Shown: positions 25,151-32,668 of the stretch, piece by piece
How positions within the stretch are numbered: the stretch's first letter is position 1
Layout: each line of letters begins with the position of its first letter
From: Candidatus Bathyarchaeia archaeon
GTDB lineage: Archaea; Thermoproteota; Bathyarchaeia; Bathyarchaeales; Bathycorpusculaceae
Direction of reading: 5' to 3'
Length of the DNA stretch: 51,516 bases
Assembly: GCA_050012755.1 (NCBI GenBank)
Contig: JBEKGO010000015.1
Location: forward strand, 1-51,516
Position numbers and translations under genes: made by a program
Notes under the pieces: model-generated
The model's input: only the letters and a program-made list of their open reading frames with translations
What the model was told of the DNA's origin: nothing
Database searches by the model: none

Positions 25151-26242
25151 ATGAAACCAGTTGTAGTGGTCGCAGGAACAAGACCAGAAATAATTAAGAT
25201 GGCGCCAATAATTCGCGCATTGAAGAAAGCTAAACTGCCTTTGATCTTTGTCCATTGTGGCCAACACTATGACTACAACATGGCTCAACAATTCATTGAA
25301 AACCTTGAGCTGCCCACACCTGACTACACTTTTGAAATTGAAGCCTCCTCTCCAGGAGCACAAACAGCGGAAATAATGCTGAAAACAGACCAGTTGCTCG
25401 AGAAGATTGAGCCCTCAATCGTCCTTGTCGAAGGCGATACAAACAGCGTTTTTGCGGCCGCAATAGCCGCTAATAAACGATTCATCTCAATTGGGCATGT
25501 TGAAGCTGGATTGAGAAGTTATGATTTCCGAATGCCTGAAGAATATAACCGACGTTTGACTGATCATGTGTCGGAATATTTGTTTGCTCCGACAGAGAGA
25601 GCAAAATCAAACCTCGCCAAAGAGAATGTTTGGGGTAAAATATACGTAACAGGCAACACAGCGATCGACGCAGTACTTCAGCACTTGCCGATTGCTGAAA
25701 GAAAATCCGACATAATGGACAAAATACCCTTCGAAACCTATGCTCTGGCAACAGCTCACAGAGCAGAAAATGTCGACAACGTGTCGGTTCTAGAATCTTT
25801 TGTAGATGTTTTCTCAAAGTCACCTATTCCAATCGTTTATCCAATGCATCCGCGTACAAAAAAGAGACTGGAAGAAAATAATATGCTTGCAAAAATGGAA
25901 GCGTCAAAGAAGGTGTTGATTCTTCCGCCCCAAGGATACTTGGATTTTTTGGTTCTAATGAAAAACTGCAAACTGATCATTACTGATTCAGGCGGTATCC
26001 AAGAGGAAGCTACTGCCCCAGCTATAAGAAAACCAGTGCTTGTAATGCGTTTGTCAACTGAAAGGCCAGAAGCTGTAGAAGCGGGATTCGCAAAAGTTGT
26101 CGGAACTGACAGCAAAAAAATCTTGGAGGCAATGCGAGATGTCGTTAAAAAGGAAGTTGACTTGCCGCATACTTCACCTTTCGGCGACGGCACCGCAGCA
26201 CAAAAAACAGTGGATGTAATAAAGAAAAATTTTGCTGCTTAA
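25151..26242 (+). CDS. wecB: UDP-N-acetylglucosamine 2-epimerase (non-hydrolysing)
   Basis: GTRPEIIKMAP, GQHY, HVEAGLRS, PEEYNR, TDSGGIQEEA, TERPE, PFGDG. Confidence 0.95.
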   Translation: MKPVVVVAGTRPEIIKMAPIIRALKKAKLPLIFVHCGQHYDYNMAQQFIENLELPTPDYTFEIEASSPGAQTAEIMLKTDQLLEKIEPSIVLVEGDTNSVFAAAIAANKRFISIGHVEAGLRSYDFRMPEEYNRRLTDHVSEYLFAPTERAKSNLAKENVWGKIYVTGNTAIDAVLQHLPIAERKSDIMDKIPFETYALATAHRAENVDNVSVLESFVDVFSKSPIPIVYPMHPRTKKRLEENNMLAKMEASKKVLILPPQGYLDFLVLMKNCKLIITDSGGIQEEATAPAIRKPVLVMRLSTERPEAVEAGFAKVVGTDSKKILEAMRDVVKKEVDLPHTSPFGDGTAAQKTVDVIKKNFAA

Positions 26243-27012
26243 GAGATGTAAGTGGTTTTTTTATCTTCTTCTTTACGGGTTTCTTCAGCTTGCAGAGCTC
26301 GTTTTTCCTCGATTTGTTGTAGACGAGTCACCATGGTTTCTGCCCGTGCAATTTCCTCATTCAATCCGGTTAAGTCTAACTCGAAGTTAAATGCAGATTT
26401 TAAAACTTCCAAAATGCTTTTTGCTGCAAGCGGATCTGGAAGGTAGCCGCGTGTTTCACCAAGAAGACAAAGAGCAGTTATTTTTTTGAATTTGGCTAAC
26501 CCAAGAATTAACCCTGCTGTACCGACAATAGGACTGCCTGAGGTGCTTAAGGTTGCGCCTGCTTTCAATGCTTTGTCCAAGATTTCTTGTGAAGTCGCGG
26601 CTATGAAGACTTTAGGTTTTTCTTTAGGCTCCATTCTGTAGCCACCGATAGTTGCAATCGTTTTTACGCCGTGTCTTTCTGAGAAATTAAGGATTTGGTC
26701 TGCAATTTCATATTGCCCTTCTATTGTTTGTGATTGGCTATCGCCCGTGAACAAAACAAGGTCGTTTTGACCATTTGGATTCTTGTAGTAGTAAAATGCT
26801 CCTCTTAATAGACGAACATTGCCTTTTTTGTTAACCAAGACAAAATATGGAAAATGGGGAGAATAGAGGTAGGCGACTTTTTTGGCTTTCAACTGTTTAA
26901 TTAAGTAACGAAGAGCGATTTTTCCCACAAGTCCTAAACCTGGCAGACCTTCGATCAGAATGGGATTGTTTGGTTCTATTTCTGTAAATTCTTTAATGTA
27001 GGTTTCTTTCAT
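26239..27012 (-). CDS. PAC2 family proteasome assembly chaperone
   Basis: IEGLPGLGLVGKI, TIGGY, IVG.AGL, CLLGETRGY..DP; conserved position after nop10. Confidence 0.9.
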   Translation of the reverse strand: MKETYIKEFTEIEPNNPILIEGLPGLGLVGKIALRYLIKQLKAKKVAYLYSPHFPYFVLVNKKGNVRLLRGAFYYYKNPNGQNDLVLFTGDSQSQTIEGQYEIADQILNFSERHGVKTIATIGGYRMEPKEKPKVFIAATSQEILDKALKAGATLSTSGSPIVGTAGLILGLAKFKKITALCLLGETRGYLPDPLAAKSILEVLKSAFNFELDLTGLNEEIARAETMVTRLQQIEEKRALQAEETRKEEDKKTTYIS

Positions 27013-27176
27013 TTGGTACTGCTCCTTTTCATTTCCATTCTATATTTTAAGTATTTATCATCAGGCGAAAACTTCGGCGGATGCGGAATTCTTACTGGTC
27101 CACCGCAATAAGGGCACTTATCCTTTTGCAGAGTATATTTTTCACAGTTTACGCATCTGCGAAGTTGCCAGACCAA
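27009..27176 (-). CDS. nop10: H/ACA RNP protein Nop10, 55 aa, absent from ORF track
   Basis: Hand translation (TTG) MVWQLRRCVNCEKYTLQKDKCPYCGGPVRIPHPPKFSPDDKYLKYRMEMKRSSTK; PHPPKFSPDDKY signature. Confidence 0.96.
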   Translation of the reverse strand: MVWQLRRCVNCEKYTLQKDKCPYCGGPVRIPHPPKFSPDDKYLKYRMEMKRSSTK

Positions 27177-27281
27177 TTATTTTTCCCTTCCAAAAGCGTA
27201 AACATCAAAATCTGTAACAGATTTTATAGTGGCAATTACTATGTTGCCAGCTTCTCGCCACTTGAGCTTATGCTCAGCCAT
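27177..27281 (-). pseudogene. eif2a: Remnant of translation initiation factor 2 alpha (34 codons, large internal deletion)
   Basis: Hand translation MAEHKLKWREAGNIVIATIKSVTDFDVYAFGREK*; resembles the aIF2-alpha S1 N-terminus (W/LPE.GE.V..TV..V.D.GAY); occupies the S27e-nop10 slot. Confidence 0.8.
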
Positions 27282-27296
27282 TAATTACTTCATCCC

Positions 27297-27494
27297 TTAT
27301 TCAAGAACCGCTTGTACGTCGCCTTTGATTTTTGCTCTTCCACCAGACGGTTCGGCTAATGTATCTCCGCACACATTGCAGGTTATCTTGTTAACGGCGT
27401 TGCTGAAGACTAATTGTTCATTACCACATTTTGGACATTTAACTCTAAGGAAGACACTACTTGGTTTTGGAATAAGTTTGCTCCATTCAGACAT
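27297..27494 (-). CDS. rps27e: 30S ribosomal protein S27e
   Basis: IPKPSSVFLRVKCPKCGNEQLVFS...C.VCG..LAEPSGGRA; ATG at 27494. Confidence 0.96.
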   Translation of the reverse strand: MSEWSKLIPKPSSVFLRVKCPKCGNEQLVFSNAVNKITCNVCGDTLAEPSGGRAKIKGDVQAVLE

Positions 27495-27508
27495 AACTTT
27501 TCTCTCCA

Positions 27509-27793
27509 TTATTGTATAACTAGTTTTCTTAAACGAATCCCGTCCTTGTGCCTCATGAAATTGCAGACTTTGCATTTAAGGCGCAAGGTTTGTTTTTTGG
27601 TTGTCTTAGCGAATTCTCTTTGAAGTGGATATTTTTGTCCACCGTAACCCTTCTTTTCTCTCTCGTGATGGCGTTCACCATGAGCTAAGGCTCTGCGCTT
27701 TCCAGGCTTGTAGAGGGTTACACTGTGAATTTGATGAGCTTTACATTTAGGACAGTATGTCTTTACTTCTTTAGGAACGTTCACGTTCTTCAC
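27509..27793 (-). CDS. rpl44e: 50S ribosomal protein L44e
   Basis: TYCPKCKAH..H.V, GYGGQKYP, AKTTKK..L.LKC..C. Confidence 0.96.
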   Translation of the reverse strand: MKNVNVPKEVKTYCPKCKAHQIHSVTLYKPGKRRALAHGERHHEREKKGYGGQKYPLQREFAKTTKKQTLRLKCKVCNFMRHKDGIRLRKLVIQ

Positions 27794-28020
27794 TACCAGC
27801 TTTGCATAAAAGAAACATACGCATTCTTATACTTTTTCACCTATATGCTAAAAACTGTAGCGTTCAACCTTTTGGACTAGCCCTTGGCGTAGTCTAGGTC
27901 TTTCTTGACAACTGTTATTCTGAAAGGCAGTTCTTATAGGCCTATTATTGGCAAAAAGGCGTAGTGTTTTTTAAACCGAAACAATCTTTACATTGTATTC
28001 AGTCTGCAGGTTTGAATGCG

Positions 28021-29103
28021 TTGACATCACAACTTTTTTTGAAAATTAAAAGCCAATCAGATTTAATCATAAAATTGTTACCGATATTTGCATTCGCCAT
28101 TCCGCTAGCTATTCTGTATTTAATGAATTTGCCTGATCCCTATCTTGGATCCAGTTCCCAGTATTCATTTCAGTTAATGTGGAAGGGCAGAACGTTCCAG
28201 TTGTTTTTTGTTTGGTTGATAGCATTGGAATTTATTCTCAGTTGGGAAAATATAAAAACAAAAATTAACAAGCAGAATAAGGCGGGACTAACAGCAGTTT
28301 CCATAGCATTGCTGCTTCCGACACTCTATGTGATTTCAGAATATTTTTTCGGATTAAATTCAGCTATCGCAAGTGCCGCCTTTCAAAGCGGAATTTACTT
28401 TTACAATTCAATGCCAATCGCTATTGAGTACATTGTTTTTTCGGTTCTCTTTTGCTTGATTGCTTTCCTTTGCTTTGGAAAAAAGGGTTTACGTGGCTTC
28501 GCTTTACCTGCTATATTTGCTGCGATAGTCGGCATAATTTACACGATCGATAACGTTTTTCCTTATGGCAAATTCACTCCATTTCAACTGTTGGTTCCAA
28601 CAACCGCTAATCTTGCCGGTTCTGTCCTTCGATTAATGGGGTACGCTGTTTTGCCCGGAACAGAAAACGGCATGCCGACCTTGCAGGTTACAGGATCATT
28701 AGGAACAACGACAACATTCGCTATCGCTTGGCCATGCGCAGGCGTTGAAAGTCTCTTAATTTACACGGCTGTATCTTTGCTGTTTTTACAACGTATGCCG
28801 TTGACTTGGAAATCCAAAGCAGGATTCTTCGTTGTTGGAGCAGCCGTTACTTACTGCATAAACGTTTTGCGAATAGCAAGCCTCTTCATTATTGGCACAC
28901 AGAATTTTGGAAACATAAACGCACAACCCGTGCAAGATTTTCATTTCTATTATGGCCCATTATTTTCGCTTGCATGGATAGTTTCATACCCGTTAATTAT
29001 CATGGTCGGCCTAGATTTAAGGCGGAAAAATAAGAAAGAAAAGGTTAATTCCGACAAAGAAAAAACTATGAAACCTCAACCGACACAGCTAAGCCTTGTT
29101 TAA
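28021..29103 (+). CDS. Archaeosortase/exosortase family transpeptidase (thaumarchaeosortase-like)
   Basis: Polytopic membrane protein with Cys (IAWPCAGVESL), Arg (INVLRI), His (FHFYYG) triad and MWKGR motif; start 28021 or 27964. Confidence 0.82.
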   Translation: MTSQLFLKIKSQSDLIIKLLPIFAFAIPLAILYLMNLPDPYLGSSSQYSFQLMWKGRTFQLFFVWLIALEFILSWENIKTKINKQNKAGLTAVSIALLLPTLYVISEYFFGLNSAIASAAFQSGIYFYNSMPIAIEYIVFSVLFCLIAFLCFGKKGLRGFALPAIFAAIVGIIYTIDNVFPYGKFTPFQLLVPTTANLAGSVLRLMGYAVLPGTENGMPTLQVTGSLGTTTTFAIAWPCAGVESLLIYTAVSLLFLQRMPLTWKSKAGFFVVGAAVTYCINVLRIASLFIIGTQNFGNINAQPVQDFHFYYGPLFSLAWIVSYPLIIMVGLDLRRKNKKEKVNSDKEKTMKPQPTQLSLV

Positions 29104-30961: not shown

Positions 30962-32668
30962 TTACCTAATCGGCAGGGGATTAGGCAAGTGAGGCTGCAA
31001 ATACCCAACAAACGGGTAATAATTTCCCCCAGCAAATGAAAGCACAAAAATCATAAAGAAAAGCCACAGCATAGTAACTTCTAACTCTTTTTTTCTTTGA
31101 GGAATTAAAGCATAAATGAAAATGAAGGGTACGTACCAATCTTGGAAGTAAGGCAGCATAAAACTGGGCAAAAGTAGAAAAACCGCTGATAAAGAAAGCA
31201 AGCTGTTTTTGTTAAGCATGTACATTAAGTAAGCAATAGTGATTGCCAAAGTTACCAAAATAGAGACTGATTGGGTTAACCAGCCAATGTGAATGTTAAA
31301 TGAAAAGGCGTTAATTCCATTCGCGATTAATTGGGATCCTGCCCCAATAAGGTATGGAACACTTAAGGAAGCAGTGAAGATGCTAACAAACCCAAAAATA
31401 AAGCCAGTAATTACAGCTTTATTTCTTAGCAAACTGCTATGATTATTTGTCAGGAAAAGTTTAACCAAACCAACAACAATTAATGGAAAAAGGAAAATGC
31501 CTGCTTGATATTTAAAAAAAGTCGAAATTGCAACAAGTAAGAAAAAGTAATCATAACGTTCAATCAAAAACATGGATATAGCAAACAGAGAAAATATGAA
31601 GGCGACGGAATCAAACATGCCATCAGCCGCGAAGACAATCAAAGTAACATAAATTATGTAAACCCCGATTAATTTGAGAAGCAAAGCCATGTTCCTTGTA
31701 AACAAACCCTTAAGGAAATAATAAACACAAACGGTGGCAAAAAATAGAAAGATAGCAATCTCAACTTTGTATATCAGAGCAGAATCCAAACCGTTCTGAA
31801 GTAGAATACCAAAAGGCAAGAAAAGTAAAATGCTACCTAAAGGGTACAAATGTGGCATTTCAGGCCAAGTTACGAAATCGTGTGATGTGGTGTCGACGCT
31901 TGCAAGTTTACTTAGAGGTTGACTAAATACTGAAAGACCATCTTTCAGAAATAAACTTGAAACATAAGTGTCTCTGCCATTATCTGTATACCAGTTTTCA
32001 AAAGTCCCAAGTGGATTGGCGTTGACTACAAGAATAGAAAGCCAAATTATTAGCGATAAGGACAGTAGTGCTATGAGCCGTTGGCGGTTTTTCTTGCTAA
32101 AAGCCTGCGTGCTCGAACTACTTAGTTTAACATAGTTGGAATTAGACATCGTGATTTTTAGAGTTAGAAGCATTACTGCAGCTAAGCTTATTATAAATGT
32201 TATTTTTGATACTTGAGTTAACCATGAGTATGCAAAAATAGCTTTTGGTTCTTGAACAGAGACTTGAAAATGCACAAGACCTGCACTTTGTGAAGAAGAA
32301 GTAAAAACTGCGTCATAATAGTCAGCATCTGCTACAAATGAATAGCTAATATTCGATTTTGTAGAAACATGGTAACATGAGTCGCTATTTATCAGCAGGT
32401 AGGTGGAGTTTGGAAAATCTATCGAAAAGTTTTTTTGAAAAGCTAATGGACTCTGGACTAGAAGCGAAATGTTTTCGCCGCTGTGAAATGAACCTAAGCC
32501 TTGCCTATAGGTTTCATTTGGATTTAATGTAAAAGTATCATTAATCATAACGTTCGATTGTGTGCCGCCGGGATAAGTCGGAAATAAGCTAACGACTGCC
32601 ATTAATATACTTAAGATTAAGAAAAGGATAGCTACCAATAGCATTTTAGTGACGCTAGGCCGTTTCAT
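30962..32668 (-). CDS. Polytopic membrane glycosyltransferase, GT-C fold (GT87/PIG-M-like) with N-terminal extracytoplasmic domain
   Basis: About 12 hydrophobic segments; acidic first loop NWYTD, LYPLG, DGMFDS, FKYQ; cotranscribed downstream of a Dol-P-Man synthase gene. Confidence 0.6.
   Translation of the reverse strand: MKRPSVTKMLLVAILFLILSILMAVVSLFPTYPGGTQSNVMINDTFTLNPNETYRQGLGSFHSGENISLLVQSPLAFQKNFSIDFPNSTYLLINSDSCYHVSTKSNISYSFVADADYYDAVFTSSSQSAGLVHFQVSVQEPKAIFAYSWLTQVSKITFIISLAAVMLLTLKITMSNSNYVKLSSSSTQAFSKKNRQRLIALLSLSLIIWLSILVVNANPLGTFENWYTDNGRDTYVSSLFLKDGLSVFSQPLSKLASVDTTSHDFVTWPEMPHLYPLGSILLFLPFGILLQNGLDSALIYKVEIAIFLFFATVCVYYFLKGLFTRNMALLLKLIGVYIIYVTLIVFAADGMFDSVAFIFSLFAISMFLIERYDYFFLLVAISTFFKYQAGIFLFPLIVVGLVKLFLTNNHSSLLRNKAVITGFIFGFVSIFTASLSVPYLIGAGSQLIANGINAFSFNIHIGWLTQSVSILVTLAITIAYLMYMLNKNSLLSLSAVFLLLPSFMLPYFQDWYVPFIFIYALIPQRKKELEVTMLWLFFMIFVLSFAGGNYYPFVGYLQPHLPNPLPIR

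Follow-up and report, generated by a model that had tools for sequence, protein, structure and literature searches.

The L44e-S27e-aIF2alpha-Nop10 cluster is among the most conserved gene orders in Archaea. After a duplication, paralogues can be lost differentially, one or the other copy disappearing according to the lineage, with constraint relaxed while both copies exist. Translational coupling by termination-reinitiation was reportedly described by Huber et al. in 2019 (PMC6728339) for overlapping or abutting gene pairs. According to the accessible part of a later study (Huber et al. 2023, PMC10666635), termination-reinitiation requires an overlap or a very short distance between the two genes, ~20 nt nearly abolishing it. 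The same part of this source indicates that 15 nt at the end of the upstream gene are enough for the process and that, at a distance of 14 nt, reinitiation amounts to 60% for one gene pair and to under 20% for another (PMC10666635).

The locus described here lies in a window of 51,516 nt, the whole stretch of DNA analysed, from the genome that we call G000; other G-numbers designate the genomes compared with it, 120 of the genus together with outgroup genomes. It displays the same genes, in the same order and on the same strand, as the LSIN cluster (L44E-S27E-aIF-2 alpha-Nop10) of Berthon et al. 2008 and, as in the accessible text of that paper, a PAC2/COG2047-type gene comes next while PriS and a GINS gene are near (PMC2643942). 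Unlike the cluster as this text presents it, the 'I' is here reduced to 34 codons, a scar, and the working aIF2-alpha is located elsewhere, and so it is in 66 of the 120 genus genomes. By definition G000 does not contain an LSIN cluster, since L44e, S27e and Nop10 are present in order and the place of aIF2-alpha is occupied by the scar only. The features of the locus are the following:

27509..27793, minus strand: L44e gene, first in the L44e-S27e-(aIF2-alpha)-Nop10 cluster (Pfam PF00935, E 5.8e-25)
27297..27494, minus strand: S27e gene, with the ATG at 27494 taken as start (Pfam PF01667, E 5.3e-21)
27282..27296, minus strand: spacer of 15 nt from the S27e stop to the scar ATG, sequence GGGATGAAGTAATTA
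27195..27281, minus strand: 5' scar segment, comprising the start codon and codons 1-29 and derived from the operon aIF2-alpha at its S1-domain N-terminus
27177..27194, minus strand: 3' scar segment, made up of the final five codons of aIF2-alpha (F G R E K) and TAA
27009..27176, minus strand: nop10, with a TTG start immediately 3' of the scar TAA (Pfam PF04135, E 5.4e-24)
26239..27012, minus strand: PAC2-family gene (Pfam PF09754, E 5e-46)

The S27e Pfam match was made on the longer ORF 27297-27575, and relatives align over residues 1-65 from the ATG at 27494. The scar is a minus-strand ORF of 105 nt and 34 codons at 27177-27281, with its ATG at 27281 and the translation MAEHKLKWREAGNIVIATIKSVTDFDVYAFGREK. 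Its TAA (27179-27177) abuts the nop10 TTG (27176) at a distance of 0, and the slot, measured from the S27e stop to the nop10 start, is 120 nt in G000. The first-pass annotation had described these 120 bp, with an ATG...FGREK-TAA frame stopping directly against the nop10 TTG, and the sequence agrees with it. The spacer includes an SD-like stretch, which is weak, as well as the two-codon ATG-AAG-TAA. Further downstream, the PAC2 ATG and the nop10 TGA overlap by 4 nt (ATGA).

PriS, Gins51, PriL and MCM are close to the locus on the same stretch. A gene for an exosortase/EpsH-like membrane protein (27964-29103, plus strand; Pfam PF09721, E 1.2e-11) is inserted on the opposite strand between Gins51-PriS and L44e-S27e, where it splits the replication-translation supercluster described in the accessible part of PMC2643942. 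A 568-aa ORF (30962-32668, minus strand) without Pfam match at E <= 1e-5 lies between PriS and a family-2 glycosyltransferase.

The scar ORF is a fragment of aIF2-alpha by descent, not a member of the family by function. Members of that family have ~260 aa, with an S1 domain, a helical domain and a C-terminal alpha-beta domain. The peptide resembles both termini of the protein: codons 1-29 share 59% identity with residues 1-29 of the intact aIF2-alpha that G000 carries elsewhere (tblastn E 4.2e-4; 54/90 nt), and its end, F-G-R-E-K-stop, corresponds to F-K-R-E-K-stop in the intact copy. The NCBIfam model of aIF2-alpha, NF003064, recognizes scar residues 6-29 at model positions 4-27, weakly (E 0.0099), and the score of 15.3 bits, against a cut-off of 252, places the scar outside the family. 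A Pfam search of the 34 aa matched no family. The decisive evidence for a remnant is that the same slot is full elsewhere and that graded remnants with the same ends exist. Among the outgroup genomes with both flanks, which represent 9 other families of the same order, 12/12 have a full aIF2-alpha (795-873 nt) in this slot. Within the genus, the slot is full-length (795-812 nt) in 54/120 genomes and shrunken (59-300 nt) in 66/120; no slot between 300 and 795 nt and none below 59 nt was found in the 120 genomes. Shrunken slots share a common start (MAERKPEWPE...) and a common end (...FRREK-stop) and form a graded series of remnants. The first-pass annotation had likewise assigned this slot to aIF2-alpha across most archaea. 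A thirteenth outgroup genome (G040, closed, from another family) has L44e-S27e-aIF2-alpha and, within 2.5 kb downstream, Nop10 and PAC2 remained unmatched, a different break of the same cluster.

Compared with the nearest full-length relative, G003, in which 786 nt separate ATG and stop, the 105 nt of G000 correspond to a net loss of 681 nt. The deletion is in frame and joins codon 29 to the last five codons, with the junction between 27195 and 27194, much as the first-pass annotation had deduced in proposing an internal deletion of ~700 bp that fused the gene start to its last codons. In the sister genomes the junction consists of GCTTACGCT followed by TTTAGAAGG, with a 2-nt CT microhomology. 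The 119-121-nt form of the slot is also encountered in assemblies of five other species, G115, G104, G111, G048 and G015, the first four of which group with G000 in one clade of the operon-gene tree. It is therefore not an assembly slip and, being common to a clade of species and diverged, it is old, two points on which the earlier view holds. The G015 locus (L057) has the same junction, GAYA/FRREK, in a slot of 119 nt, compared with 27177-27296 in the window, and G015 is positioned elsewhere than the G000 clade both in the operon-gene tree (weak support, 39) and in the tree of off-operon copies; this identity reflects either recurrence at the 2-nt microhomology or recombination between species.

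The G000 assembly, a draft of 65 contigs with 100% completeness and 0.97% contamination, contains an intact aIF2-alpha on another contig (C4:23852-24640), which the whole-genome search suggested by the first-pass annotation was able to recover. This open 262-aa frame has the domain set of the family, Pfam S1 (E 1e-09) and EIF_2_alpha (E 1.3e-25), and scores 259.6 bits with NF003064, narrowly over the curated equivalog cut-off of 252 (283.8 for the G003 operon copy), which makes it an aIF2-alpha; compared with its G115 counterpart, omega is 0.02. The aIF2-gamma of G000, for which loss of the alpha-binding loop had been envisaged, is intact as well (640 bits versus a cut-off of 514.5). Initiation without aIF2-alpha in this lineage, one of the two alternatives raised at first, is ruled out by the intact C4 copy. 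The other alternative, a relocated gene, is retained in another form: the gene did not transpose but was duplicated long ago, after which the operon copy was lost. The off-operon protein would bind aIF2-gamma and deliver the initiator tRNA, as suggested by its being the sole full-length copy in 59 genomes and by the intact aIF2-gamma in G000.

Two ORFs accompany the off-operon gene. One of 112 aa (L001:1942-2280, on C4 in G000) begins 12 nt after aIF2-alpha and occurs at 37/60 off-copy loci; another of 103 aa (L001:783-1094), located upstream, occurs at 22/60. Neither has a match in Pfam. The off-operon paralogue may have acquired a conserved new partner.

The 120 genus genomes were searched and every full-length aIF2-alpha match (E <= 1e-40) was listed, its placement in or outside the operon being assigned manually and the totals then checked. 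The DIFFERENTIAL LOSS tally over these genomes gives 25 with the operon copy only, 29 with an off-operon copy and a full-length slot, and 66 with a shrunken slot. An off-operon copy is carried by 59 of the 66 shrunken-slot genomes, and a shrunken slot occurs in 0/25 of those with the operon copy only. Full-length aIF2-alpha is present in all genomes that are at least 90% complete (73/73); at this threshold of E <= 1e-40 it was not found in 7/120, all with a shrunken slot and 52-88% complete. Stops interrupt the operon copy of G088 and of G086, both among the 29 genomes with an off-operon copy and a full-length slot. That of G088 (L075) is full-length and decayed, with 56% identity, one TGA and a longest ORF of 135 aa, the PAC2 gene being intact; this operon pseudogene represents the stage before deletion. 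G091 contains two off-operon copies (contigs C8 and C9), both 83% identical to the query, in an assembly with 6% contamination; the pair reflects either another duplication event or mixing in the bin.

The draft state of G000 could prompt the suspicion of an assembly or binning artefact, the full gene being in reality at this locus or the C4 copy belonging to another organism. The recurrence of the 119-121-nt form in the five other species' assemblies contradicts the first possibility. As to the second, off-operon copies exist in 88/120 genomes, closed ones included, in G003 both copies are on one contig, 374 kb apart, the tree of off-operon copies broadly follows that of the operon genes, and contamination of G000 is below 1%. 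An artefact is scarcely credible.

In a protein tree of 124 aIF2-alpha copies (60 off-operon and 52 operon copies from the genus, plus outgroups), the genus copies are monophyletic with respect to the outgroups (support 99). The 60 off-operon copies constitute one clade (support 100), whose stem is long (0.319) and whose sister group is formed by the 52 operon copies (support 67). They are 62-74% identical to operon copies of the genus and 44-56% to those of outgroups. A single off-operon clade sister to the operon copies implies that the gene was duplicated once, at the base of the genus or earlier; a recent jump or a distant import of the off-operon copy is excluded by this tree. Nei-Gojobori estimates for sister pairs, which are few and not all independent, give an omega of 0.02-0.06 where the off-operon copy alone survives (8 pairs) and of 0.03-0.10 where only the operon copy is present (6 pairs); in two-copy genomes the two copies give 0.04-0.13 (8 pairs). 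This pattern fits the prediction of redundancy followed by loss. Almost certainly, then, the gene was duplicated, the off-operon copy diverged and became the sole functional one in many lineages, that of G000 included, and the operon copy was removed by internal deletions.

The G000 scar has drifted more than those of its sisters, with K-L-K-W-R in place of K-P-E-W-P, and is equally near both lineages (17/29 residues shared with the operon type and 17/29 with the off-operon type). Sister scars are nearer the operon type (21-22 versus 17-18 in G115). The scar is assigned to the operon lineage because of its position and of the remnant series, not of the residue count.

What was left in the slot was then compared across the genus. 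Twelve assemblies in which PAC2 (10 genomes) or the off-operon copy (2) is split or has stops were set aside because of probable sequencing indels, leaving 108 good assemblies of the genus, with 57 of the 66 shrunken slots. In 46/57, the slot contains a coupled ORF, starting at most 20 nt from the slot start and stopping between -2 and +2 nt of the nop10 start (53/66 when the 9 noisy assemblies are added). By length and sequence clustering, the shrunken slots fall into 20 forms, a conservative number as some clusters merge genomes of different clades; they were placed on an operon-gene tree of 1438 columns only. A majority of genomes is in frame in 15/20 forms, with a binomial P of 1.7e-4 against an expectation of 1/3, a simple null, for forms that are not fully independent events; the number is 17/20 when at least one such genome suffices. 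Five out-of-frame lengths lie 1-2 nt from an in-frame sister (44/45, 55/57, 211/213, 217/216 and 284/285). The large deletions were thus multiples of three in nearly all cases, small frameshifts coming later.

Nonsense changes are absent among at least 166 substitutions in five allele groups (P ~1e-3 under a simple uniform-mutation model), and in the other two frames of the same scar ORFs stops number 107 and 183 per 1756 codons. The peptide itself is not constrained, since nine independent scar pairs show 58.5 nonsynonymous and 15.5 synonymous differences, an omega of ~1; in the flanking genes of the same pairs, dN is 0.000-0.020 and dS 0.07-0.56. A functional small protein, for example a fragment with an S1 fold, could be imagined from the open frame, its start codon and the first codons (MAERKP) recurring in most remnants. 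With such an omega, with remnants ranging from 14 to 94 codons (the shortest a 14-codon ORF in a 59-nt slot) and having unrelated middles, with no Pfam family, and with only ~65% of scar residues alike between G000 and G115 when 98% of their PAC2 residues are, this idea is very improbable.

The same omega is what would be expected of a neutral relic, undeleted junk whose open frame and stop at nop10 have been inherited by chance. Slots that go on shrinking in nested steps and the exact arrangement being gone in 11/57 good assemblies also agree with it. Of these 11 uncoupled slots, 7 have a stop 13 nt upstream of the nop10 start, a TAG inside TTTTAGAAGG, one has its stop 5 nt upstream, two continue into nop10 and one has lost the ATG; the constraint is therefore leaky. 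Chance inheritance does not account for 15/20 forms in frame where a third would be expected, nor for the missing nonsense changes. Moreover, in most pairs the scar diverges 2-4x less than the synonymous sites of the flanking genes (about equally in the 232-nt form), and both of its ends are nearly fixed, 0/66 slots being shorter than 59 nt. We regard neutral persistence as unlikely.

The conserved ends deserve attention in their own right. In the six genomes with the 119-121-nt form, the middle of the scar is variable, whereas the spacer 27282-27296 with the following ATGGCTG, and the TTTRGAAGGGAAAAWTAATTG end, are nearly invariant. Families across the order share a conserved sequence over the final ~20 nt of aIF2-alpha (TTYAAAAGGGAAAAATA). 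A TAATG overlap of its stop with the nop10 ATG is seen at most of the 12 outgroup loci, and the nop10 start column is ATG in 12/12 of them, compared with TTG in 85, GTG in 18 and ATG in 3 of the 108 good assemblies of the genus. An SD-like GGAAGGG (27185-27191) is found inside the 3' part of the scar, 8-14 nt before the nop10 TTG. No 16S rRNA gene was found in the G000 assembly and, with the 16S 3' tail taken from three closed relatives, this motif forms a duplex of -6.6 kcal/mol, 10.7% of background positions reaching -6 or lower; the value for the spacer, -5.2 kcal/mol, is not above background.

These ends could be retained as cis-elements only, the 3' end as the ribosome-binding site of nop10 and the 5' end as a signal for the end of the S27e transcript, translation being irrelevant. 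Conservation of the last ~20 nt across families, pairing of GGAAGGG with the 16S tail and the survival of out-of-frame forms are all in line with this. It leaves unexplained the in-frame excess and the absent nonsense changes, as well as the ATG found at the ancestral start position in 50/57 good shrunken slots. Nor does it explain G101, G121 and G094, which have lost the ancestral ATG and in which an in-frame ATG further upstream has taken over and opens the coupled ORF. Cis-elements alone seem to us an unlikely explanation, a shade more so than neutral persistence. In the short-slot clade, loci L102-L132 (slots of 62-81, 120 and 141 nt), the mini-ORF is opened by an in-frame ATG that precedes the ancestral start by 12 nt and follows the S27e stop at 2-3 nt (MNSK/MSTQ-MAERK...). 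The equivalent ATG of G000, within 27282-27296, runs into AAG TAA and gives the two-codon ORF.

We propose, with a probability of roughly 0.7, that the scar is a relic which would be kept translated for coupling to nop10. In the genus, nop10 has a weak TTG start set directly after the aIF2-alpha stop, and any deletion would have had to spare the last ~20 nt of aIF2-alpha, the presumed ribosome-binding stretch of nop10. Ribosomes would initiate at the old aIF2-alpha ATG, translate the scar and terminate at TAA-TTG. They would then be passed to nop10 by termination-reinitiation, or else their passage would hold the nop10 start region unfolded, and from nop10 they would go on to the overlapping PAC2 gene. 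Selection would act on the start region, on the open frame and on the position of the stop, the peptide being an unselected by-product.

The two ORFs are on the same strand with stop and start at distance 0, the positional arrangement of a coupled pair. Frame retention, the absence of nonsense changes and the retained ATG suggest that the scar is translated, and nop10 probably depends on this translation. Coupling of the frame to nop10 had already been put forward in the first-pass annotation; the frame excess, the lack of nonsense changes and the fixed ends now lend it comparative support, the coupling step, which we still infer, being by itself about as probable as the whole proposal or slightly less so. 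These data would fit equally well a related effect, the loss of downstream expression through an untranslated stretch, and reinitiation proper. In addition, a moderate SD-like stretch (-6.6 kcal/mol) belongs to nop10 itself, which therefore may start unaided. A compensatory change was sought in the nop10 start of the 11 uncoupled genomes and none was found, TTG being present in 11/11 versus ATG in 3/46 of the coupled ones.

The 13-nt gap of seven uncoupled genomes can be compared with the 14-nt distance for which the accessible part of PMC10666635 gives reinitiation values, and the proposed coupling would fit the experiments published there. Two studies provided four metatranscriptome runs (shares of 0.05-0.07), whose contigs are 85-99% alike to the locus, none at 99%, and therefore come from relatives and not from this organism. 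Some of these RNA-library contigs, in which DNA carry-over is possible, span S27e and the 5' part of the scar (27222-27434). One spans nop10 and the 3' end of the scar (26987-27194) and then enters a longer remnant. For the G000 locus they are evidence neither of transcription nor of transcript ends.

The aIF2-alpha protein was able to leave one of the most stable archaeal clusters once a duplicate existed, yet something still seems to need translating in its place, which points to coupling as one force freezing gene order. In a tentative extension, to which we give somewhat less than even credit, the aIF2-alpha/nop10 adjacency, conserved almost Archaea-wide, would be held by the need of nop10 for ribosomes terminating upstream and not by a link between the proteins. 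More boldly still, the long-stem off-operon paralogue would be a changed aIF2-alpha that has repeatedly displaced the ancestral one because it functions better outside a ribosomal-protein operon. On the first of these readings, the natural deletion series of at least 20 forms would map the minimal coupling element to three components, namely the start region, an open frame of any kind and the final ~20 nt. Termination-reinitiation could be studied in this uncultured archaeal lineage on natural 'constructs', of which the genus provides dozens. On the practical side, pipelines that rely on synteny for aIF2-alpha annotation or as a marker would miscall these genomes, and scars may become hypothetical proteins.

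In the open-access papers and bioRxiv preprints searched, neither an aIF2-alpha paralogue in this lineage nor the retention of scar ORFs for coupling is described. The loss of the operon copy resembles differential paralogue loss, with one duplication, loss of either copy and relaxed constraint in two-copy genomes. It departs from the ordinary case in that one of the two loci belongs to a tightly coupled operon, so that the loss would leave a selected footprint instead of nothing.

With the coupled gene pairs described in the accessible part of Huber et al. 2023 (PMC10666635), the locus shares the stop abutting the start (0 nt here, TAATG in most outgroups) and an upstream ORF whose short 3' part is the conserved portion; an SD-like stretch within the end of this ORF is a candidate ribosome-binding motif for nop10. 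Unlike the pairs presented there, the upstream ORF is here a relic whose product is not conserved, and coupling is deduced from comparative counts only. The nearest published analogue that we found would be comEB-comEC of Bacillus subtilis, where, judging from the accessible portion of the preprint (10.1101/2020.12.30.424838), the upstream protein is dispensable while the downstream gene requires that the upstream ORF be translated and that it contain a weak ribosome-binding site. ComEB is full-length in that account, unlike the present ORF, which has been repeatedly cut, down to 14 codons. The mechanism would thus be ordinary translational coupling, and what is new would be its object, a relic trimmed repeatedly within one genus and apparently still obeying the rules of a coupled ORF.
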